This document shows positions 190-11,937 of a DNA stretch of 37,657 nucleotides, in pieces (the stretch's first letter is position 1; each line of letters opens with the position of its first letter). The DNA is from a virus (Duplodnaviria; Heunggongvirae; Uroviricota; Caudoviricetes): IMG/VR virus record IMGVR_UViG_2516143071_000007, one strand, 5' to 3'. Made by a program: the position numbers and the translations under genes. A model generated the notes under the pieces. That model was not told where the DNA came from, did no database searches, and saw nothing but the letters and a program-made list of their open reading frames with translations.

Positions 190-606
190 TCATTCACTCC
201 CCTCTTTTTCCTTATTTCGTTGAACGCCAATTGCAACACACGTACTAAGCAAATCTTTACATTTCTCTACGTCTTCAGACTTACGCAATTTGATGCTTTT
301 TACAGACTGCGGGCTACTGTCCGTAGCACGATACATCGTTATTTCAATATCATTTCGGTCTAAGAGTCCCATAATGGCTTTTGCAACCTCCACACCCTTC
401 TTCGCGAAATCAAAGAATAGAGCAAGTTTATATGGATTTTCGACGGAAAAAACTTCAATTTTGCTAAAACCAACATCGTGTAGAGAAAAATATTGCCCAA
501 CCTCATCTCGAAGTTCTGGATCGCATACAATGTCTATTCTCCAGTACTGACCTAAATGCAAATCGCTATTAACTGTTTTTTCCACAACATCCTCCTTACC
601 CAGCAA
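190..606 (-). CDS. Hypothetical protein, 138 aa, AT-rich cargo gene downstream of int
   Basis: Clean ORF; its ATG (606-604) overlaps the int stop (596-598) by 11 nt, suggesting co-transcription; visibly AT-rich; no motif recognised. Confidence 0.55.
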   Translation of the reverse strand: MLGKEDVVEKTVNSDLHLGQYWRIDIVCDPELRDEVGQYFSLHDVGFSKIEVFSVENPYKLALFFDFAKKGVEVAKAIMGLLDRNDIEITMYRATDSSPQSVKSIKLRKSEDVEKCKDLLSTCVAIGVQRNKEKEGSE

Positions 607-1570
607 TAGGATTAAATCTCACCGCATCCTGCAAGTAATCCGGCGCAAGATGGGCATAAATCATCGTTGTCTGAATCTTTGCGTGCCCCAGAATTTTCTG
701 GAGCGTCAGAATATTGCCGCCGTTCATCATGAAATGACTGGCGAAGGTGTGGCGCAGCGCATGAACAGCCTGACCGTCAGGAACATCAGATGCGACCGTT
801 TTGATGACATCGCGAACCAATGGATAATCCAGCGTCGGAAACACCAGTTTCCCGCCCCGTTTTTTGATCTTTTCAAACAGGCTTTCAGAAATAGGAACGG
901 TACGGTTTTTGCTGTTCTTCGTTTTTGAAAAAGTGATTCGACAATGAAGAACACGGCGCTGCTCCAGTACCGCTACCTCGCCCCATCGCGCCCCGGTCGA
1001 CAGAAGGATTTCGACAGCCAGCCGTTCATCGGGATTTTCAGCCAGTGCATCCAGCAACTGAACACATTCAGACTTACTCAGATATCCCATTTCGCGCTCG
1101 TTAACCTTCATTCCTTTAAGGCCTTGAACGGGGTTATCGTTAAGAAAATGGCCGGATGAGATGAGTGCGGTAAACATCGCGCTTAACGCCCCAATCTCTC
1201 GATTTATGGTGCTGGGCTGTATCCCCTGCTCTATCCTGGACACACGTAGCTCGGTGAGCATTGTTGTATTAAGTTTATGCACGCACGGGTCATCCATTGC
1301 CTCACTCAAGCGCAGCAATTTAAGGCGCGTGTTATGCCCTGACTTCATTAGCTGGCCGTGGTATTTCCACCACAAGTCAATAAGCACTGACAGAGGACGG
1401 CGATCAATAGAGTTTCCTTTCCACTCATTGTTATGCTGTTGCGCCAGCACCCACCGCTCATATAAAACTGCATCCGATTTCGTTTTAAATTTTTTGCGGA
1501 TGCGTTTGCCTTTACGCCCCTCAGGGCGCATGTCAAGAAGATACCCTCCCGGAATTGATTTTATGCTCAT
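596..1570 (-). CDS. int: Tyrosine recombinase, P2-type phage integrase
   Basis: C-terminal HALRHTFASH...IQTTMIYAHL catalytic region; start chosen at internal ATG (MSIKSIPGG, 1570), the ORF-track start at 1720 would overlap the repressor gene; position next to repressor. Confidence 0.9.
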   Translation of the reverse strand: MSIKSIPGGYLLDMRPEGRKGKRIRKKFKTKSDAVLYERWVLAQQHNNEWKGNSIDRRPLSVLIDLWWKYHGQLMKSGHNTRLKLLRLSEAMDDPCVHKLNTTMLTELRVSRIEQGIQPSTINREIGALSAMFTALISSGHFLNDNPVQGLKGMKVNEREMGYLSKSECVQLLDALAENPDERLAVEILLSTGARWGEVAVLEQRRVLHCRITFSKTKNSKNRTVPISESLFEKIKKRGGKLVFPTLDYPLVRDVIKTVASDVPDGQAVHALRHTFASHFMMNGGNILTLQKILGHAKIQTTMIYAHLAPDYLQDAVRFNPIAG

Positions 1571-1619
1571 TCGTGAAACCCCAGCGTTACAAGACCACCA
1601 TGCCCCCAGCGTTCCATGA

Positions 1620-1931
1620 TTAGCCGGGCTGTGTACCAGTCTTGCGGGATTTTTGAGAAGACGATGTGTTTTCTGGCCCATCAGGGGAGAGAGAGGGACT
1701 GATCTGCCCAGCAGCCTCATTTGTTTTTCCCGTCATAAGCCATATAGTGTATTTTTCGAAATCCTTAGAATTAATTACGCGATCAACAACGCTTAAACCA
1801 ACCTCTCTTTTACCGCTCTCATAATTCTTTATAGTTCCGAGATTTATCCCAGTAACATCAGCAAACTCAGCTTGAGTTAACCCTTCACTTTTCCGTATCT
1901 CTTTCAGTTTTTTTTCGTACCCACTTGACAT
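1620..1931 (-). CDS. Immunity repressor, HTH_XRE type (P2 C / 186 CI position)
   Basis: HTH segment LTQAEFADVTGINLGTIKNYESGKR; about 100 aa; upstream of int and divergent from early operon. Confidence 0.8.
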   Translation of the reverse strand: MSSGYEKKLKEIRKSEGLTQAEFADVTGINLGTIKNYESGKREVGLSVVDRVINSKDFEKYTIWLMTGKTNEAAGQISPSLSPDGPENTSSSQKSRKTGTQPG

Positions 1932-1941
1932 GGTGGTCTCC

Positions 1942-1986
1942 AGACGACTAAATTAACCCTAAAAGTCGCCTATAGACGACTTTTAG
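1942..1986. promoter_or_regulatory. Early-switch operator: direct AGACGACT repeats and a 10-bp inverted repeat
   Basis: AGACGACT at 1942-1949 and 1974-1981; CTAAAAGTCG (1959-1968) N8 CGACTTTTAG (1977-1986); lies between divergent repressor and cox-position genes. Confidence 0.55.
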
Positions 1987-2022
1987 CAACAAATAACCAC
2001 AGACTGAACAGGTTATCACATC

Positions 2023-2301
2023 ATGACAAAGCTCTTGAACACATACGAGCAAGCGGATTTTGAGCGTTTGGCGGCGTTCTACCCATACCGCGATGAGCAT
2101 GGATTACCGGTACTCGAAGAAAGCCTGAAAGATTACGCGAAGCGTACCAATCAAACTGTTAATGCAGTGAAAAGGCAGGCTGACAGAGCAGCCCTTCCCA
2201 TCAACCAAGAAGAAAAAAACTCAAAACGTACAGTAAATCTCTTCGCAATTTTCCTGAAAACCATCAGAAACGCAGAGAAATACGTGCAGATGACAAAATA
2301 A
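2023..2301 (+). CDS. Cox/Apl-position early protein (putative excision/switch regulator), 92 aa
   Basis: First gene of rightward early operon divergent from repressor; assignment by position only, no sequence similarity to P2 Cox recognised. Confidence 0.45.
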   Translation: MTKLLNTYEQADFERLAAFYPYRDEHGLPVLEESLKDYAKRTNQTVNAVKRQADRAALPINQEEKNSKRTVNLFAIFLKTIRNAEKYVQMTK

Positions 2302-2315
2302 CGAGGTGTCATTTT

Positions 2316-2654
2316 ATGCTGAAGCAACGCCGTAATTTTCGTACCGGAACAGAACGCCACGCTAACCATTTCGCTACCAACGCATCACGCAGCAACATCC
2401 GCTACAGCCTGAGCGAGACGCACGCAACACCTGATGGCCACACAGTAAAACAAATTGGCGAACACACCTGGCTAATTGAAAAAGCTGGAATCGTGGTTCA
2501 CAGATGCCCACGCAATCCGTTTACCGGAAATCGCATTTTTGCACTAAGCAGCGGCGACAATCAGTTCGGGCAGGATTTCACATTATACGAAGCACTACGC
2601 ACGGTTGATCGTCTGCTTCGCGGACAAAGTTTTATTAAACAGGCTGATTTATAA
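2316..2654 (+). CDS. Hypothetical early protein, 112 aa
   Basis: ORF with GAGGTG Shine-Dalgarno upstream of ATG. Confidence 0.5.
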   Translation: MLKQRRNFRTGTERHANHFATNASRSNIRYSLSETHATPDGHTVKQIGEHTWLIEKAGIVVHRCPRNPFTGNRIFALSSGDNQFGQDFTLYEALRTVDRLLRGQSFIKQADL

Positions 2655-2664
2655 CAGGTGCTTT

Positions 2665-2952
2665 ATGACCAAAGAGCATGCACAAGGTGTATTTATCCGT
2701 TTTATTGATTTTCGCGGTGAACTGTTATTACGCGCATCCGCTATTGATGGAGTGGCTCCGGCGGGTAAAAACGGAGTCGACGAAGCCACTTACGTTTATC
2801 TGAACGGCACGCGACTGCTTGTGGAACTTCCGTACCAGACCGTACGAGAAATCATTAGCGAAGCTGAAAAGGCACGCCAGGTTAATGGCGATAAACCCTA
2901 TATCGAAATTATCTGCATAGATTCAGAAGCTGAAATTCAGAAAGCAGATTAA
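2665..2952 (+). CDS. Hypothetical early protein, 95 aa
   Basis: ATG at 2665 preceded by AGGTG; the ORF-track 5' extension overlaps the previous gene. Confidence 0.5.
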   Translation: MTKEHAQGVFIRFIDFRGELLLRASAIDGVAPAGKNGVDEATYVYLNGTRLLVELPYQTVREIISEAEKARQVNGDKPYIEIICIDSEAEIQKAD

Positions 2953-2963
2953 AGGGCGTTGCG

Positions 2964-3206
2964 ATGGGCAAAGAATATAAAACTCTCATTAACAAAGCAC
3001 TTGAGCGTTTTTATTTTCGCTTAAGTGCATCAGGCGCTCATGCTGAACGTGCAGCCCGTGACTCATTGACCAGGGCAATCCGGAGTCTGTATGACGTGGC
3101 TTTTTACGCTGATGATCTGGATGCACTTAACGAACTTTCCGAGCTGATCTGTGCCGCAGAATGCGGGGAACATATTGAACCGTATAAGCTGGGGAATATC
3201 GCATGA
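2964..3206 (+). CDS. Hypothetical early protein, 80 aa
   Basis: ORF in early operon, compact spacing. Confidence 0.5.
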   Translation: MGKEYKTLINKALERFYFRLSASGAHAERAARDSLTRAIRSLYDVAFYADDLDALNELSELICAAECGEHIEPYKLGNIA

Positions 3207-3316
3207 GTATATTTATCTCATGGCTTGTTCTGATTATTTCGGTGGCCTGCGCCATTGGGATTATGCGAATTATTCATTCAGTGAAAAAGATTGAACGTTA
3301 TTTCCCTGACGAATAA
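3203..3316 (+). CDS. Small hydrophobic peptide, 37 aa (MSIFISWLVLIISVACAIGIM...)
   Basis: ATG overlaps the upstream stop (ATGA); one predicted TM helix; below the ORF-track size cutoff. Confidence 0.35.
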   Translation: MSIFISWLVLIISVACAIGIMRIIHSVKKIERYFPDE

Positions 3317-3404: not shown

Positions 3405-3725
3405 ATGAATAAGAATGCAAAAATCATCAAAATTCACGAAAGAATATTAATAATTCTCAAGCACCTCCACGATGATGAACTGGATGAGGCACTACTCGTC
3501 GCTATTGAACTCACCAAAAACCTTGTTGACGGAACCTGCCCGGAACATAAACCAGGCCTGTTTATGGTACTGCTGACAGCGAAAGCTCTGTTAGAGGAGC
3601 TCTCATCGACCATCAACTCGCTTCTCACCGAAATAGACGAACTACACGACCACATTGAAGGACTGGAAATTCAGCTATCTCGCGTTCGTCGTCAGAAACA
3701 GAGCGGTGAGCGCAATGGCAATTAA
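3405..3725 (+). CDS. Hypothetical early protein, about 106 aa
   Basis: ATG at 3405 preceded by AAGAAGGGG; acidic and coiled-coil-like. Confidence 0.5.
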   Translation: MNKNAKIIKIHERILIILKHLHDDELDEALLVAIELTKNLVDGTCPEHKPGLFMVLLTAKALLEELSSTINSLLTEIDELHDHIEGLEIQLSRVRRQKQSGERNGN

Positions 3726-3918
3726 GCGTTTTTCCGTCATTCGTTTCACCTCCAGAGGGCGTGAATACGAAATTGACGAACGGCTGATTAAAACGCTCGA
3801 CCGTCACCGTTCGCAACCTGACGCGCATCACATTTATCTCACTGACGACACTTACTTCTGCGCCACCAACGTGGTGCAGGTAAATCTTATCAGACAGGTA
3901 CAGGAGTCACGCAAATGA
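3715..3918 (+). CDS. Hypothetical early protein, about 67 aa
   Basis: Start at internal ATG (MAIKRFSV) overlapping the upstream gene end; GGTGAG upstream. Confidence 0.4.
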   Translation: MAIKRFSVIRFTSRGREYEIDERLIKTLDRHRSQPDAHHIYLTDDTYFCATNVVQVNLIRQVQESRK

Positions 3919-4160
3919 CCATTCTGGACTACATCGCCGCCAATCCGGGTTGTAGCGGTAGCGAAATCGCCACAGCACTGAATACCCCAACCACAGCCAT
4001 TAATTCGGAGTTACGCCGACTCTGGCGCGACGGCTTAGTCATCAGAGAAGAACGCAAAACAGGCGGTCGGTTCTCTTACCTGGTAAACCCGATGCCGTTC
4101 GGGTGTGGCAACCCACTTACTCACATGTTTAACCAGCTACTGAAGGAAGCCAGAGCATGA
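3915..4160 (+). CDS. Small winged-helix-like DNA-binding protein, 81 aa
   Basis: Pattern GSEIATALNTPTTAINSELRRLWRDGLV resembles MarR/wHTH recognition helix-wing; CAGGAG Shine-Dalgarno; ATGA coupling. Confidence 0.5.
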   Translation: MTILDYIAANPGCSGSEIATALNTPTTAINSELRRLWRDGLVIREERKTGGRFSYLVNPMPFGCGNPLTHMFNQLLKEARA

Positions 4161-5471: not shown

Positions 5472-8308
5472 GTGCGTTTGCATGGAGCTGGAATGAACCA
5501 CGACCAGCTATTGATCCGGCCAGATTTACGGAGCACAGGCAGGAAACTGAAACCGACCTGCAACGCGCCATCCGTTACTACCTTGAGGCGGACAAAAGGG
5601 CACAGGAAGAACAGGAAGCGAAGAAAGAAGCCTTTTTCGCACAATCCGCCATGGGTAAAAAACTCATGGCATCCCTTGAGGAAGCCGGACAGCGTGAGAA
5701 GCTGGCACAGAGCATCATCAGTAAGCGCCGGGCAACAGAACAAGACCCGGTAGCCCGTGCCTTTGCCACACTGAAGGCGCTTCCCGTTTATCTGCGAGAA
5801 CCTCTGAGCCGCCACCTCTCTTTCCTGCGCAAGAAGCAGGAAGCCGATCGTCAGAAAGGCAAAAAGAGCTGGCAGGCGGAACGCTATGCACGCGGAACCC
5901 TGCGCAAAATATTCGAACGTCTGGATCGCACTGACGGGCGCTGGCTGACACCTGGTTATCGCTCCCTTGCCGGACGCGAACGCCTGGACGATTTGCTTTA
6001 CCTGCCGCAGCTCAACAAACACCAGATACAGACGCTGGCCACCATGACGGCGGCGATGTTCAGCAGCACCTTCGAAAAACTCTGCGATGGCTTTGGCGCG
6101 ACCGATGGCGAGCTGACCATGGATGTAACGCTGAAGACGTATCAGATGCTGGCCCGCATGGCGTTACACCTGCACGCCATGCCTCCACATTATGACGCAC
6201 TGACAACAGACAAAGACCGGAGGAACGAACCAGACACGGAGCTGCTGCCGGGCGCAATCCTTCGCCTGACCTGTGCGGAATGGTGGAAACGCAAACTGTG
6301 GCTGTTACGTTGCGAGTGGAGAGAAGAACAACTCCGCGCCGCCTGTCTGGTTTCCAGAAAAACATCACCCTATCTGAGCCAGGACGCGTTAAGCGAGTTT
6401 CGCGCACAGCGCGAGAAAACACGCGATTTCCTGAAAAGTTTCATGCTGGAAAACGAAGACGGGTTCACGATTGATCTCGAGACAGTGTATTACGCGGGAG
6501 TAAGTAACCCGGTTCACCGTAAGGCAGAAATGATGGCCACCATGAAGGGACTGGAACTTCTGGCCGAAGCCCGTGGCGACAGAGCGGTGTTTCTGACTGT
6601 CACCTGCCCGTCAAAATACCACGCAACAACGGAGAACGGTCATCCGAACCCTAAATGGAACGGGGCCACCATGCGCGACTCCAGCGATTACCTGGTTAAC
6701 ACGTTTTTTGCGGCGGTCCGCAAAAAACTGAACCGCGACGGTCTGCGCTGGTATGGCATCCGCACGGTGGAGCCTCACCATGACGGCACTGTGCACTGGC
6801 ATATGATGGTCTTTGCTCATCCGGAAGAAATCGACAGCATCGTGGCCATCACCCGCGATATTGCCATTCAGGAAGACCGCCACGAGCTGGGCAATGATAT
6901 TACTCCGCGCTTTAAGGTGGAGTATGTCGACGGCTCAAAAGGCACACCAACCAGCTACATCGCCACCTACATCGGAAAGAACCTGGACAGCCGCGCCGTG
7001 GATGGCATCGACCCGAAAACGGGCAAGCCACGCGTTGACCACGAAACCGGAAAATCAATGGCCGAGAGCGTGGAACGCGCCATCGGCTGGGCGCGCCTTC
7101 ACCGGGTCCGCCAGTTCCAGTTCTTTGGTATCCCCTCCCGTCAGGTGTGGCGTGAACTGCGCCGCCTTGCCAGCCAGATGGCACGCAACCCGGAAGGCCC
7201 GCAACGGCTGAAGGATGACGCAATGGACGCGGTACTCGCTGCCGCTGATGCCGGATGTTTTGCCACCTACATTGAGAAACAGGGTGGCGTACTTGTTCCA
7301 CGCAAAGACTACCTGATTCGCACCGCCTACGACCTCGCAGATGAGCTGAACGATTACGGTGAACAGAGCGTACAGATTTACGGGATCTGGTCGCCGCTCA
7401 TTGGGGAGTCTTCCCGCGTATGCACGCATCCGGATAACTGGAAGCTGGTAAGACGCAAACCGGAAGCGGAAGACAGCGCCCGCGAAAATGGTTTTGACCT
7501 TCAGGGCGGCCCTGCCGCCCCTTGGACTCGTGGCAATAACTGTCCCCGTGTACAGGAAACGGACAACAACGGGACAGAACAGCCGGAAGAACGGCCAGCA
7601 CCGTGGCCGCAGCTCCCTGACGGCGTTGATGTGGATGAATGGATGCGCTCACTGAAACGGCACGAACGCCGGGCGCTGATGCGTTCGCTTCGTGACAAAC
7701 AGGCAAAAAACAGCAGTGATGAAATGCAGAGCTGGACACAGAGCCGCAAACAGCAGCGGCCTTTGCCTGATAACCACGAATTACTCGCTAAAGAATGGCG
7801 GGAGTCTGCTGAATCTCTCGGCCTGCATATCGGTGAACAACAGATGCAGCACCTGTTACGGGGCGGCAGTCTGTACGTTGACGGCAGCATCATTGCACCG
7901 CAGGGATTTGAAATTGTACGCAAACCGGATACCCGCCCGGACAGCCGAATCACGCAGCTCTGGCAGCGCCTGAGCCGTAATCATGGCGTAAGCAGCACGG
8001 AGATCCGCCATAACCCGGTCGCCAGCTATCTGACACAGCTGGGGGCATCAGACCCTGAAGCCGCCGCACGCCTGGCATCCACACTTCAGCAGGACCAGAA
8101 CACCATGAAAACACCCGTTACCGTGCTTTCTGACATGCTGCGCGCCATCCGCGACGCAGAGCACGCACAGAGAATCAGTGAAACCACTGAACGCGCCCGC
8201 CGCAAAGCAGACCTGCTGCGGGGTGGCCTGACCAGTGGAAACAAAAAACAGACAGAAACGGGACTCACGAATCCCGTAAATGAGCAAAAAACGCGCAGCG
8301 ATATATGA
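5468..8308 (+). CDS. A: Rolling-circle replication initiator/endonuclease, P2 gpA family
   Basis: HUH motif HWHMMVF and paired tyrosines YIATYIGKN; start at ATG overlapping upstream stop; long C-terminal extension relative to P2 A as I recall it. Confidence 0.85.
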   Translation: MSAFAWSWNEPRPAIDPARFTEHRQETETDLQRAIRYYLEADKRAQEEQEAKKEAFFAQSAMGKKLMASLEEAGQREKLAQSIISKRRATEQDPVARAFATLKALPVYLREPLSRHLSFLRKKQEADRQKGKKSWQAERYARGTLRKIFERLDRTDGRWLTPGYRSLAGRERLDDLLYLPQLNKHQIQTLATMTAAMFSSTFEKLCDGFGATDGELTMDVTLKTYQMLARMALHLHAMPPHYDALTTDKDRRNEPDTELLPGAILRLTCAEWWKRKLWLLRCEWREEQLRAACLVSRKTSPYLSQDALSEFRAQREKTRDFLKSFMLENEDGFTIDLETVYYAGVSNPVHRKAEMMATMKGLELLAEARGDRAVFLTVTCPSKYHATTENGHPNPKWNGATMRDSSDYLVNTFFAAVRKKLNRDGLRWYGIRTVEPHHDGTVHWHMMVFAHPEEIDSIVAITRDIAIQEDRHELGNDITPRFKVEYVDGSKGTPTSYIATYIGKNLDSRAVDGIDPKTGKPRVDHETGKSMAESVERAIGWARLHRVRQFQFFGIPSRQVWRELRRLASQMARNPEGPQRLKDDAMDAVLAAADAGCFATYIEKQGGVLVPRKDYLIRTAYDLADELNDYGEQSVQIYGIWSPLIGESSRVCTHPDNWKLVRRKPEAEDSARENGFDLQGGPAAPWTRGNNCPRVQETDNNGTEQPEERPAPWPQLPDGVDVDEWMRSLKRHERRALMRSLRDKQAKNSSDEMQSWTQSRKQQRPLPDNHELLAKEWRESAESLGLHIGEQQMQHLLRGGSLYVDGSIIAPQGFEIVRKPDTRPDSRITQLWQRLSRNHGVSSTEIRHNPVASYLTQLGASDPEAAARLASTLQQDQNTMKTPVTVLSDMLRAIRDAEHAQRISETTERARRKADLLRGGLTSGNKKQTETGLTNPVNEQKTRSDI

Positions 8309-8353
8309 AGCGCGCACAAAACAGGCAAAAACGGGATTTCAGAATCCCGTAAA
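8257..8353. repeat. Two 24-bp palindrome-containing direct repeats flanking the parM upstream region
   Basis: AAACGGGACTCACGAATCCCGTAAA (8257-8280, inside the 3' end of A) and AAACGGGATTTCAGAATCCCGTAAA (8329-8353); each carries ACGGGA-N7-TCCCGT. Confidence 0.6.
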
Positions 8354-8384
8354 CGATTAATTAATCAACATAAGGAAAAGCGAC

Positions 8385-9344
8385 ATGAAAATTTGTATCG
8401 ACGACGGCTCCACCAACATCAAGCTGGCATGGACTGAGAACGGCGAACGCCGCAACGCCATCAGCCCGAACAGCTTCAAGTCGGAATGGTCTGCGCCGTT
8501 CGGTGGCACGCAGCCCGCGAACTACATGCTTGATGGCGTGCGCTATGGTTTTGATCCGGTCAGCGATCGCTTTGTCCAGACGACCGACACGCAATACCAA
8601 TACAGCGATGTGAATGTCATTGCCATTCATCACGCGCTGGTCAAATCAGGCATCACACCACAGGAGGTGGATGTGGTTGTCACCCTGCCACTGAGCGAGT
8701 ATTTCGACACAAACGCACAGCCGGACATGACCAATATCAACCGCAAAAAAGCGAACGTTATGCGCCCGGTGGAGTACCAGAACGGCGAAGCATTCACTAT
8801 CCGTAACGTACGGGTTATGCCTGAATCCATTCCGGCTGGCTTTAAGGCACTGGCTGACATGAGTCCGTTTGAATCCCTGCTGATTGTGGATTTGGGCGGA
8901 ACCACGCTGGATGTGGCAAAGGTTCAGGGGCAACTGGCAGGTATCAGCCAGGTGTTTTGCGATCCACACGTAGGCGTTTCTCTGATGGCCGATGCCGTAC
9001 TGTCGGTGATGGCCACTAACGGTATGCGCACCAGTCACCACATCGCCAATACCATTATCGAACATCGCCATGATGAAGCCTGGCTGCGCCAGCACATCCA
9101 CAATGACGCGCATTACGCCAGCCTGATGGCGGTTATTCGTGAAAAGGAAGAAACACTGAAACAACGCGTGATCCGCGCGCTGGCGGGTTTTTCGGGTTAC
9201 GGGCGGGTGATGGTTGTCGGTGGTGGGACGGAGATTGTGGCACCCGCTATCCGCGAAGCCTGCGGAGTTAATGCGACTTTCATCGCGGACGGGGTGCCAC
9301 AGTTTGCTCTGGTTAATGGGCTGTACGCAATGGACAAGGAGTAA
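8385..9344 (+). CDS. parM: Actin-like segregation ATPase, ParM/StbA family
   Basis: N-terminal IDDGSTNIKL, SPNSF, YSDVNV, VMPESIPAG, DLGGTTLD, SGY..VMV(V/I)GGG blocks match my recollection of plasmid R1 ParM along the whole length. Confidence 0.8.
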   Translation: MKICIDDGSTNIKLAWTENGERRNAISPNSFKSEWSAPFGGTQPANYMLDGVRYGFDPVSDRFVQTTDTQYQYSDVNVIAIHHALVKSGITPQEVDVVVTLPLSEYFDTNAQPDMTNINRKKANVMRPVEYQNGEAFTIRNVRVMPESIPAGFKALADMSPFESLLIVDLGGTTLDVAKVQGQLAGISQVFCDPHVGVSLMADAVLSVMATNGMRTSHHIANTIIEHRHDEAWLRQHIHNDAHYASLMAVIREKEETLKQRVIRALAGFSGYGRVMVVGGGTEIVAPAIREACGVNATFIADGVPQFALVNGLYAMDKE

Positions 9345-9348
9345 ACCA

Positions 9349-9663
9349 ATGACGACACCAACCAGACGGATAAGTTTCTATCTGAAGCCAGTCGCCGTCA
9401 ATAGTGAACGGGAGGCGTGTAATTACCTCGACAGCCTGCCAGCCTCTGAACGCAGCCGCGCGCAACGCGCGGCCTTTCTGGCCGGGCTGGCACTCATAAA
9501 ACGCGATCCTGCATTTGCCTATTGGTTGGCCGAATGGCCGGAAGAAGGAGCTGCGCCAGCCAAGAATAATATTCAGAGTAAATATGCCAGCGCACCTGCC
9601 ACCGGAAGCAATCACAGCACTAGCGAGATAAGAAAGAACATTCAGTCATTTTTCCCAGAGTGA
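9349..9663 (+). CDS. parR: ParR/StbB-like centromere-binding adaptor, about 104 aa
   Basis: Directly downstream of parM with AGGAG; N-terminal RRISFYLKP...LDSLP..ERSR..RAAFLAGLAL resembles R1 ParR ribbon-helix-helix N-terminus from memory. Confidence 0.6.
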   Translation: MTTPTRRISFYLKPVAVNSEREACNYLDSLPASERSRAQRAAFLAGLALIKRDPAFAYWLAEWPEEGAAPAKNNIQSKYASAPATGSNHSTSEIRKNIQSFFPE

Positions 9664-9682
9664 AAACAGGAGAGGAGCATCT

Positions 9683-10114
9683 ATGGCAACTATCCCCAAA
9701 AAATGGTTACAACGCAAAATTGCAGACCTTGAATCGTGTCGTGAAGACATCCCGTTTGGCCTTGATGAAAACGATCACAATATGTTAATCGCACTGAAAA
9801 TCGCACTCACATCGCTGGAAGCGAAACCTGTTGCATGGACTGATGATGAGGAACTGCGTGATGTCAAGCAGTATGGTTTCGGTGAGATATTTCAGTGTCC
9901 GCCAGATAAATACGCGGACCCGCGACGTGTTATCCCTATGTATCGAGAGCCGCCAGCGCCAGCAGTACCAGATGGACTGGTTAGAGCGGTGCGTTTCTAT
10001 GAACAGGTAAAGCGTGAGAATCCGCCAGTCGAAACTGGAGTATGGAAAGACGCTATTGACTGGGTGACCAAAGAGGCTTGCCAAGCTGTAGACATTGGCA
10101 TCAAAGGAGAGTGA
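9683..10114 (+). CDS. Hypothetical protein, 143 aa, in parMR operon
   Basis: AGGAGAGGAG Shine-Dalgarno; no motif recognised. Confidence 0.55.
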   Translation: MATIPKKWLQRKIADLESCREDIPFGLDENDHNMLIALKIALTSLEAKPVAWTDDEELRDVKQYGFGEIFQCPPDKYADPRRVIPMYREPPAPAVPDGLVRAVRFYEQVKRENPPVETGVWKDAIDWVTKEACQAVDIGIKGE

Positions 10115-10115
10115 T

Positions 10116-10379
10116 ATGGCAACTTTGACAAAAAAAGAACAAGCATGGTTGAGCGAATTACAGGACGTTCTTGATCGCTGTCCATCACCGAAAAAAATTG
10201 GTTTTTACACCATTGGCGATAAAAGCATTTACCTGTATGACCTACGCCGCATGGATGAAATCATGGAGGCTCTTGATAATCGTTCGTCAATGGATTGGTG
10301 TGTTGCTGTCCATGATATGAATGCAGGGTTTGATGAAAAGATTTTGTTCCCCTCATCACTTGAAAGCACAGCAGGATAA
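10116..10379 (+). CDS. Hypothetical protein, about 87 aa, last gene of parMR operon
   Basis: AAAGGAGAG Shine-Dalgarno then ATG at 10116 directly after the upstream stop. Confidence 0.5.
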   Translation: MATLTKKEQAWLSELQDVLDRCPSPKKIGFYTIGDKSIYLYDLRRMDEIMEALDNRSSMDWCVAVHDMNAGFDEKILFPSSLESTAG

Positions 10380-10414
10380 GGACCCAGCCAATATACACAA
10401 CCTATAAAACACTA

Positions 10415-10440
10415 AAGCGCCTCAGGGGCGCTTTTTGTTT
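10415..10440 (+). terminator. Rho-independent terminator after the parMR operon
   Basis: AGCGCC-TCAGG-GGCGCT hairpin followed by TTTTTGTTT. Confidence 0.65.
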
Positions 10441-10466
10441 GCACAAAAGTGCACAAATTTGCACAA
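10441..10466. repeat. Three GCACAA motifs phased at 10-bp intervals
   Basis: GCACAA at 10441, 10451, 10461 in TTTGCACAAAAGTGCACAAATTTGCACAATTTTTTT. Confidence 0.6.
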
Positions 10467-10840
10467 TTTTTTTGAACGACTTTTTACCCTTCCGGCCCGC
10501 ATGGCGGCTGGATCCGTCAAGGATCCGTGCGTGCACAAAAAAACGCGCTTTTTCTACGCGCAGGTGACGGGGGAACAGCCCGCGCTTCAGGGGGTAAATA
10601 GCATCCCCTGAACGGTGTCGCAGAGATACAACAGAATGGCTGTATTTCTCACGCTGAGCGTGAAAAAGACGTGAGGGCTTTTGCTTTGATGGGGTGGCAG
10701 ATAAGGCCGTCAAAATCGCACTGAGGCGGCGAGAACATGCAGTCAGCGCAGTGGGATTGCGTAAGAGTCTGACCGTCGATGATGGCAATAAGCAGGAAAG
10801 CGTCGTGAAATTATCTGATTGATACAGGAGCTGGAGAGTC

Positions 10841-10863
10841 GGGGCATAAATTTTTTATGCCCC
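10841..10863 (-). terminator. Stem-loop downstream of Q
   Basis: GGGGCATAAA-TTT-TTTATGCCCC 10-bp stem 27 nt after the Q stop; A/T-rich centre, no external T-run. Confidence 0.4.
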
Positions 10864-10890
10864 GGCGAAGCAGCAGACAAGCGAAGCGCG

Positions 10891-11937
10891 TCAGGATGTG
10901 GGCTGGGTATCTAACAGTGCGTAAGGGTTAAAGCGGATCACCTCTTCGCCAAGCCAGTCATTGATGTGCTTCATGGCCTCCATGACGGGCATCAGCTCGT
11001 TAATTGCGTAAACCCGCGCGGCCTTCTCCACATCACCAAACGCACTTTTTTCGCCCGGCATCGCCCCCATCAGTTGCGGCGGAACGCGGTGCGCAGCCAG
11101 CACATCATCACGGGATGCCGCCTTAACATTCATAAACTCATCTTTTGCGGTGATCTGCTGGAACGGCAAAATTTGCACCCCCTCTTTGCCACCGTTGGGC
11201 GCATGAATGAGCACGTTTTTAAACGCACCACCACCACGTGCACCCTGTAGCGTTTCTTTCAGGGAGTCCATGCTTTCGCGGTTTACCTGCGCTGCACCGA
11301 TGTAGATGATGCACCCGGCGTGGGATCCGTTGTCGTAATACAGTTTTCTGAACATGTCCGCCGAATGAGACAGGCTGGCCGAGAGTAATGCGCCGAGATA
11401 TTCCGGCATGCCGTAGATTTCCTGGTTAATGTCAGGATTCATCAGGTGGCACACTTTGCCAGGGCGAAACTGAAACGCGTCCTTGCCATCCTGCACATAC
11501 CACCATGATTCAAGATCGCTTCCGCGTCGCATGTATTTCGCCAGGGCGTGCCGTAATTTAAGCGGTTCGCCGAGCATATTGCTTCGAAGCTCAAGGAATG
11601 CGTTACCGAACACAAACCAGTCCAGCGCCAGCGCCGAGAAATCCTGCCGGGAAAGCAGCGGGTGCGGGATGTAGCAACCGAGTAATACATTGCGCTTAAA
11701 GTAAAGCGCAGACTGATGCCAGGACGTTTGCCGGGCTGCTCTTGCCAGACCGTACCAGTCCACCGGGGTTTCATACCACCGCCCGTTATCAGCACAGTAC
11801 ATATTGTCCAGCAGGTCATGCCCGGTCAGGCGATAAGGACCATCAAATGTGAATGCACTGAGCGATGATTCTTTCCTGAGCGCATCAGCGAGATCAATGC
11901 GTGAACTCATGCGCACTTTTTTATTTTTTCTGCTCAT
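10891..11937 (-). CDS. Q: Portal protein, P2 gpQ family
   Basis: About 348 aa; start overlaps P stop as TGATG on the minus strand; P2 capsid-gene synteny. Confidence 0.85.
   Translation of the reverse strand: MSRKNKKVRMSSRIDLADALRKESSLSAFTFDGPYRLTGHDLLDNMYCADNGRWYETPVDWYGLARAARQTSWHQSALYFKRNVLLGCYIPHPLLSRQDFSALALDWFVFGNAFLELRSNMLGEPLKLRHALAKYMRRGSDLESWWYVQDGKDAFQFRPGKVCHLMNPDINQEIYGMPEYLGALLSASLSHSADMFRKLYYDNGSHAGCIIYIGAAQVNRESMDSLKETLQGARGGGAFKNVLIHAPNGGKEGVQILPFQQITAKDEFMNVKAASRDDVLAAHRVPPQLMGAMPGEKSAFGDVEKAARVYAINELMPVMEAMKHINDWLGEEVIRFNPYALLDTQPTS

Follow-up and report, generated by a model that had tools for sequence, protein, structure and literature searches.

Analysis of the 37,657-nt viral sequence IMGVR_UViG_2516143071_000007 (the window, i.e., the whole stretch of DNA analyzed here) revealed two direct copies of a 42-nt unit, each with an inverted pair GGG-N10-CCC at its core, at the junction between gene A and the parM-parR gene pair of a P88-like prophage (genus Xuanwuvirus, Peduoviridae, P2-like). 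Judged from the sequence, the two units probably constitute the parC-like centromere/operator of a phage-borne type II (ParMRC) partition cassette. The evidence comprises the linkage of the repeats to the cassette, the conservation of their geometry across genera without the hairpin, and a correlation between the type of site and the beta-strand of ParR. Double-stranded ParR-binding sites are therefore favored over hairpins, terminators, and a replication origin. A literature search found no paper describing this partition site or explaining the presence of a plasmid segregation machine in an integrating phage.

Repeat units and their linkage to the parM-parR cassette

Reading of positions 7900 to 8700, together with a repeat finder, confirmed two near-identical elements upstream of parM. 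The exact element, AAACGGGA-N8-TCCCGTAAA, is 25 nt long and occurs at 8256-8280 and 8329-8353; the copies are spaced 73 bp from start to start and are separated by 48 bp. Self-complementarity is confined to ACGGGA/TCCCGT and is extended in copy 2 to ACGGGATT/AATCCCGT. A preliminary description of the same sequence had reported two palindromes of 24 bp with an N7 center, the first starting at 8257 and the two lying 72 bp apart. Both elements are real, with off-by-one corrections to length, center, and start; the spacing is 73 bp, and the self-complementary part of each is 20 bp, as the outer AAA...AAA is unpaired. Each copy lies in one unit of the 42-nt direct repeat (family D1 of the repeat finder), and each unit contains the 20-bp palindrome ACGGGAyT-N4-AATCCCGT, referred to here as a dyad. 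The pattern ACGGGA-N8-TCCCGT was found twice in the 37.6-kb window compared to 0.05 occurrences expected, and none of 100 shuffled sequences reached two.

The preliminary description had placed copy 1 in the last codons of gene A; it is positioned within the last ~17 codons of this gene, which ends at 8308, and copy 2 is positioned in the 76-nt gap that precedes the parM start codon at 8385. Relative to this ATG, the dyads lie at -126 and -53, and dyad 2 lies 21 nt 5' of the Shine-Dalgarno sequence. The 10- to 11-bp periodicity of A/T tracts in 8241-8390, which serves only as a proxy for curvature, is at the 99.7th percentile among 150-nt windows of this sequence. No further repeat array was detected inside or downstream of the parMR cassette. 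An exact-pattern scan of IMG/VR matched at least 120 contigs, and all matches listed have the A-parM context, five of them being cut by contig ends. Together with the two copies in the window, this single context differs from the dispersal of repetitive extragenic palindromic (REP) elements.

Comparison with two P88-like prophages that carry other cargo (L135 and L136) revealed that both align with the window up to ~8205 and diverge beyond this position. Neither contains a GGGAyT...AATCCC element. In L135, gene A is followed by genes for a Dam methylase and an AAA ATPase, and in L136 by unrelated minus-strand genes; the C termini of both A proteins differ from that of the window. Because the alignment ends at ~8205, the left junction of the parMR cassette is placed at ~8206-8212, and the last ~34 codons of gene A are assigned to cassette DNA. 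This result supports the earlier claim that the cassette junction lies inside the 3' end of gene A. The preliminary description had also proposed a comparison with P2-like genomes lacking parMR and had named the presence of the same repeats downstream of their gene A as the contrary outcome; the repeats are absent from L135 and L136.

The constraint on copy 1 was assessed in 118 distinct P88-like sequences, the set of close relatives used throughout. In the gene A tail, the diversity at codon position 3 (0.048) equals that at positions 1 and 2 (0.045), compared to 0.101 versus 0.054 in the gene A backbone. Equal diversity at the codon positions indicates that the constraint on copy 1 does not derive from a coding role. 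The sequence comparisons support the view of the repeats as cis-elements that belong to the parM-parR cassette, with which they travel, rather than to gene A.

The repeats straddle the 3' end of gene A, a position that could suggest that they are part of the phage replication origin, either as A protein sites or as a nick-site hairpin. The P2 origin lies inside gene A, and rolling-circle origins often have hairpins. However, the nick site annotated at 29892 in P2 (GCGCC^TCGGAGTCCTGTCAA) aligns with window positions ~7514-7543 (GCCGCCCCTTGGACTCGTGGCAATAACTGT), near 7520 and ~735 bp upstream of the repeats. Since the repeats also do not follow gene A, being absent from P88-like prophages with the same gene A and other cargo, the origin was rejected as a very improbable explanation.

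Among the 118 relatives, the GGG and CCC of both dyads are nearly invariant, with the exception of 8348 C>T in 16%, and the dyad centers are polymorphic (positions 8264, 8269, 8340, and 8342 vary in 20 to 32%). The dyad arms revealed no compensatory changes, only one-sided changes, accompanied by the polymorphism of the centers. Two lineages show 8 to 9% divergence in parM DNA but only 3 to 5% in the 150 nt upstream, where both dyads have stayed intact. Phages that retain the dyads differ from one another in the genes downstream of parR. In one decayed P88-like prophage (L037, positions 560-3270), gene A is truncated and separated from dyad 2 by inserted IS66-family genes; this prophage has lost dyad 1, the IS66-linked deletion ending right beside dyad 2, and its parM is frameshifted.

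Related loci and known partition sites

ParM searches of genome and viral contigs returned only near-identical P88-like loci among the best 80 matches. A protein search combined with contig look-ups reached ParMs with 54 to 62% identity. Each of these for which upstream DNA was retrieved on a sufficiently long contig belongs to a P2-like prophage, with the gene A homologue on one side and the portal gene on the other. These prophages come from Hafnia (L301), Plesiomonas (L303), Serratia (L304 and L314), and Enterobacter (L305), and at least five genera have retained the parMR pair between A and Q.

The Hafnia and Plesiomonas ParMs are 62% identical to that of the window, and exactly two GGG-N10-CCC dyads are present upstream of each (Table 1). 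In shuffles of the 170-nt upstream regions, two such dyads occurred in at most 0.1% and the observed spacing in at most 0.001% (≤1e-5). As in the window, the 3' end of the preceding open reading frame (ORF) contains the upstream dyad in both genera. The inner arms are unpaired there, with folding energies of -4.2 to -5.1 kcal/mol, mostly like those of the shuffles, compared to -8.7 to -10.7 kcal/mol in the window, and no T-run follows the dyads on either strand. Since the GC-rich dyad geometry and the distance between the dyads are conserved and the hairpin is not, the element looks like a double-stranded protein-binding site rather than a hairpin. In the Hafnia locus, a separate 167-amino-acid ORF (3453-3956) between gene A and parM overlaps both dyads; its product has no similarity to the C-terminal extension of the window A protein (E=0.5).

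It is unlikely that the palindromes act as nucleic acid hairpins, either as tandem terminators of minus-strand transcription entering gene A or as mRNA hairpins of the A-parM transcript with an effect on its processing, stability, or translation. Both dyads of the window pass a minus-strand terminator scan (8-bp stem, 4-nt loop, T-rich tails UUUUGCC and UUCUGUCUGUUUUUU), and their hairpins are stable (z of -2.8 to -3.9), but neither this strength nor the T-run is kept in Hafnia and Plesiomonas, where only GGG and CCC pair across 10-nt loops. Such terminators would also lack an obvious transcript: no minus-strand promoter was found in 8350-8800 (best score 4.6 bits, below the window median of 5.1), and no minus-strand gene is located between parM and the bidirectional terminator at 10414-10434. 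An antisense RNA ending at the minus-strand hairpins was rejected for lack of a minus-strand promoter in 8350-8800. On the plus strand, the substitutions 8331 A>G and 8348 C>T retain G-U pairing, and a structured element with compensatory changes is present upstream of parM in the Serratia and Enterobacter relatives; the plus-strand hairpins of the window, however, have no U-tract, and their arms show no compensatory changes in the 118 relatives. Rfam 15 gave no family match in 7900-8700, only a chance microRNA hit (E=6). The dyads in the window may also act as minus-strand terminators.

Comparison of the ParR sequences with respect to the N-terminal beta-strand revealed TRRISFYL, TRRVSFYL, and TRRISFYL in the dyad-type lineages (shared motif TRR(I/V)SFYL). 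The Serratia and Enterobacter lineages have NRKISFYL, together with a different upstream design in which homologous GGGAAC half-sites end a ~70-nt inverted repeat, and R1 has RRTIAFKL, together with direct iterons. Across the five lineages, three of the dyad type and two others, the type of site thus appears to correlate with the type of ParR beta-strand. The inverted repeat associated with the NRK-type ParR (L304 at 3880-3946, L314, L305 at 3883-3950, and L313) reads GGGAAC-rATATAGAAAAAT-(26-28 nt)-ATTTTTCTrTTTC-GTTCCC. Its center holds a small GC hairpin with compensatory substitutions between lineages (GCCGC/GCGGC, GCCAC/GTGGC, AGCCG/CGGCT, and CTAGC/GCTAG).

All characterized type II centromeres are located directly upstream of parM-parR (PMC5016525, PMC9426499). 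The number of repeat units per centromere is 4 to 10 in R1, pSK41, and pCW3 and 2 in pB171 (PMC9426499). The 159-bp parC of R1 consists of two sets of five direct 11-bp iterons that flank a 39-bp promoter core and is strongly curved (PMC2241845). The preliminary description had likened the window locus to R1 parC; the likeness holds for the position and the two-block arrangement and fails for the promoter between the blocks and for the orientation of the repeats. Like R1 parC, the window sites form two blocks of repeats directly upstream of parM-parR in A-rich DNA, curved in R1 and judged here by the proxy only. The ParR protein belongs to the same Pfam family and is 43 to 45% identical over its N-terminal 63 residues to the nearest plasmid ParRs, which are of the R1/R100 type. 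The leader motif CATAAGGA is common to the window and the R1 parM leader, and the right arms of the dyads, AAwCCCrnAAA, which are the better-conserved arms, resemble the R1 iteron AAACCCAAAA. Unlike R1, the window has two dyads, i.e., four half-sites in inverted pairs, its upstream block lies inside a coding sequence, its ParM is 46% identical to that of R1, and there is no promoter between the blocks (1.2 bits versus 13.0 bits for R1).

The right arm of Hafnia dyad 1, AAACCCAAAAAC, is identical to a stretch of R1 parC that spans an iteron boundary. A matrix derived from the ten R1 iterons placed the Hafnia arm 2nd and the Plesiomonas arm 3rd among the ~18,000 positions scored in the respective locus. 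A block spacing of 72 to 73 bp shared with R1-type and IncL/M parC families was discarded as possibly coincidental, because the R1 blocks start 93 to 94 bp apart.

The small number of sites has a precedent in par1 of pB171, whose ParR is reported to bind just two 10-bp repeats upstream of parM (PMC9426499). Unlike the window sites, the pB171 repeats are direct, as judged from their description. Ribbon-helix-helix dimers accept inverted as well as direct repeats, the dimer being pseudo-symmetric (PMC5016525). In this respect, the dyads resemble the operators of omega of pSM19035 and ParG of TP228, which are dyad or mixed-orientation sites. Binding of two dimers to a ~20-bp dyad is the mode of Arc and Mnt of P22. 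Unlike the system in the window, omega, ParG, Arc, and Mnt are type Ib partition proteins or pure repressors, and the use of inverted sites is not known for any type II ParR (PMC9426499). An IncI-gamma/K plasmid (L140, 1049-1153) carries the palindromic elements ATGTACAT and ATACATTGCATGTAT, which flank a TATAAT promoter upstream of parM. Phages may therefore not be the only carriers of inverted sites in type II loci. A conjugative plasmid whose ParM is a 52% relative (L310) has ordinary T-rich direct iterons.

A protein other than ParR, such as a host factor, a phage regulator, or a recombination protein, might bind the dyads and thereby mark the edge of the exchangeable cargo. The location of the dyads ~35 to 50 bp inside the left junction of a cargo hot spot, the IS66-linked deletion that ends adjacent to dyad 2, and the lack of covariation between dyads and ParR classes are compatible with this explanation, which is nevertheless rather improbable: the dyads accompany parMR alone, other cargo at this junction being without them, they stay while the downstream genes vary, their type tracks the ParR beta-strand across genera, and their arms are like the R1 ParR iterons in two lineages.

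Proposed expression and function of the cassette

The preliminary description had placed a parM promoter between the palindromes, with GATATAT as a possible -10 element. This sequence overlaps the stop codon of gene A, varies in relatives, and has no usable -35 element; it was rejected by both a promoter scan and our own -35/-10 matrix. The scan found no plus-strand promoter in 7900-10900. With the matrix, which recovered the true R1 promoter at 13.0 bits as a control, scores upstream of the Shine-Dalgarno sequence (8200-8376) did not exceed 1.2 bits, compared to a median best score of 5.1 bits per 200 nt of the window. A par promoter within or overlapping parC, a classical feature of such sites that ParR autoregulates, was accordingly not found in 8200-8376. 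All five plasmid parMR loci checked (L012, L138, L139, L140, and L310) have a sigma-70 promoter upstream of parM that scores 9.2 to 13.8 bits with the same matrix. In contrast, four of five phage-borne loci score 1.2 to 5.2 bits; the exception is Hafnia (9.0 bits), whose candidate overlaps dyad 2. This difference between plasmid and phage loci suggests that phage parMR is driven from the early operon. No plus-strand terminator was found between A and parM, the next one being located at 10414-10434, and transcription from gene A probably continues into parMR. The absence of its own promoter suggests activation of the system together with phage replication and not in the lysogen.

The parM gene is under strong purifying selection (nucleotide diversity [pi] of 0.014 at codon positions 1 and 2 versus 0.064 at position 3), and the ParM protein is 99% identical where the upstream DNA is 15 to 25% diverged. 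The nearest plasmid ParMs are ~52% identical. ParR is hypervariable (50 to 98% amino acid identity) among phages whose parM and upstream DNA are 95 to 99% identical. It has two classes of helices 1 and 2 and a variable linker; the N-terminal strand TRRISFYLKP and the C-terminal NIxxFPE, which we take to be the ParM-contacting end as in known systems, are invariant. The only solved structure matched by ParR is that of pB171 ParR (Protein Data Bank entry 2JD3; E=0.005, residues 6-61). The DNA similarity between phages breaks off within parR at ~9401, 9494, or 9540.

In the proposed mechanism, each 20-bp dyad, with its GGG-N10-CCC core, would bind ParR, with ribbon-helix-helix dimers occupying the two half-sites. 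The dyads, 73 bp (seven helical turns) apart on A-tract-phased and probably curved DNA, could bring together about four ParR dimers in a small partition complex, in which the conserved C-terminal tails of ParR would capture or cap the ends of ParM filaments. Read-through from gene A would place expression in the early (lytic) operon, following infection or induction, at which stage the phage genome is circular and free. The most that ParR on dyad 2 would do is to serve as a roadblock or a weak operator damping this read-through; the role of a classical repressor flanking a promoter would not apply. Should the dyads prove to be ParR sites, the grammar of type II centromeres would extend from direct iterons to inverted half-sites. 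They would also provide a very small and defined parC (~115 bp, four half-sites) for structural and in vitro work, and the reason for a segregation machine in an integrating phage would become directly testable.

A broader and more doubtful proposal is that a promoter-less ParMRC system with a minimal two-dyad centromere has been retained at the end of the early operon by P2-like temperate phages in at least five enterobacterial genera. An integrating phage would then use actin filaments of the plasmid type on its own circular genome, once it has infected a cell or been induced. Such filaments might separate replicating circles or position them, or else maintain a genome that has not integrated across cell divisions. 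On this proposal, the locus would also be the first type II centromere to be read at inverted sites.

Alternatively, ParR might bind the dyads solely as a regulator, through a transcriptional roadblock or translational control between A and parM, in a cassette that no longer segregates DNA in integrated prophages. The presence of only two sites, the lack of an own promoter, the chromosomal location of almost all copies, and the proximity of dyad 2 to the Shine-Dalgarno sequence would agree with such a role. The strong purifying selection on ParM and its near-identity despite diverged upstream DNA, the retention of the ParR tail NIxxFPE while the rest of the protein varies, and the maintenance of parMR between A and Q in at least five genera argue against it and make a purely regulatory function quite unlikely.

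Several observations weigh against assignment of the dyads to a ParR centromere. All characterized ParRs bind direct repeats (PMC9426499), and here only two sites are present, in inverted orientation. There is no promoter to autoregulate. The diversity of the dyads (pi of ~0.055) is similar to that of the flanks (0.03 to 0.07) and about the same as that of synonymous sites within E. coli. The arms of the window are not top hits with the R1-iteron matrix; the best in 8230-8384 ranks 67th. In 94 distinct loci, dyad haplotypes and the two N-terminal-domain classes of ParR shared at most 0.03 bit of mutual information, a comparison that cannot decide, with linkage decaying within parM; the lack of association fits both ParR classes reading the same sites, without proving so. 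Both dyads score as minus-strand terminators, as described above, and the central hairpin of the Serratia and Enterobacter repeats looks like a real structure; a role of structure-forming DNA or RNA there could apply here. Finally, 1531 of 1533 E. coli copies of the locus are chromosomal, and the need for a centromere is not obvious.

Prophage context and neighboring features

The coordinates of the gene A-parM-parR region and of the related dyads are listed in Table 1. The A-3'/parM segment is 95 to 99% identical to phage P88 and its relatives. Used as a 1.3-kb query, positions 8100-9400 are 100% identical to the chromosome of E. coli O104:H4. This segment occurs in 1370 of 5426 complete E. 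coli genomes, at 1531 chromosomal places and 2 plasmid places, and its carriers include O104:H4, O157:H7, and ST131 strains. The parM leader is nearly invariant among the 118 relatives, and ATTAATCAA and the Shine-Dalgarno sequence are common to the Hafnia and Plesiomonas loci.

Table 1. Features of the gene A-parM-parR region (window positions) and dyads of two related loci (positions relative to the parM ATG).
Feature	Position	Strand	Description
Gene A	5486..8308	+	940 amino acids; TGA at 8306-8308
Cassette-derived gene A tail (~last 34 codons)	8206..8308	+	Left parMRC cassette junction placed at ~8206-8212
Repeat unit 1 (42 nt)	8242..8283		A-rich flank, dyad 1, and TAAATGA, inside the gene A 3' end; 81% identical to unit 2, spacing 73
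Dyad 1	8258..8277		ACGGGACTCACGAATCCCGT; commonest form in relatives ACGGGATTCACAAATCCCGT; core GGG-N10-CCC at 8260-8275
Spacer between units	8284..8314		Holds the gene A stop codon (8306-8308) and GATATAT; no credible promoter; variable in relatives, not kept in Hafnia (L301) or Plesiomonas (L303)
Repeat unit 2 (42 nt)	8315..8356		Intergenic; from the repeat finder
Dyad 2	8331..8350		ACGGGATTTCAGAATCCCGT; core GGG-N10-CCC at 8333-8348; 53 nt before the parM ATG
parM leader, conserved	8357..8384	+	ATTAATCAA at 8360-8368; Shine-Dalgarno sequence AAGGA at 8372-8376
parM	8385..9344	+	Actin-like segregation ATPase, 319 amino acids; PF06406 (E=3e-82), PF21523 (E=6e-68)
parR	9349..9663	+	Ribbon-helix-helix adaptor, 104 amino acids, presumed dyad binder; PF10784 (88 bits versus cutoff of 25)
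Hafnia dyads	-129 and -56		GGGATTGAGGAAACCC and GGGTTCATTAAATCCC; 73 bp apart
Plesiomonas dyads	-132 and -60		GGGACAACAAAAACCC and GGGACAACACTAACCC; 72 bp apart

The C terminus of the gene A protein is ~140 amino acids longer than that of P2 A (761 amino acids), and the extension has no Pfam match. Like orf91-tin-old of P2, the cassette occupies the cargo hot spot between gene A and Q/cos; it differs in bringing cis-acting DNA sites of its own, and these overlap the gene A end. The two ORFs that follow parR (9683-10114, 143 amino acids, and 10116-10379, 87 amino acids) match neither a Pfam family nor a PADLOC model. A defense-system reading of the cargo was rejected, since the parMR proteins and these two ORFs match no PADLOC model. 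The genes after parR differ between P88-like phages; HicAB is found in the Serratia prophages and a KAP NTPase in one Enterobacter prophage.

The strong bidirectional terminator at 10414-10434 closes the early/cargo transcription unit. It is followed by overlapping palindromes formed by three TGCACAA repeats (10445-10470), in the interval from the cargo to the portal gene in which cos would be expected. A complete P88-like genome has been deposited as a 34.5-kb circular nonmobilizable E. coli "plasmid" (NZ_CP148288.1). Its gene table includes integrase, cox, gene A, parM-parR, terminase, capsid, and tail genes, with gaps and no portal row; PLSDB gene tables omit pseudogenes and some genes. This record could be an excised or replicating phage captured in an assembly, or it could represent an episomal state.

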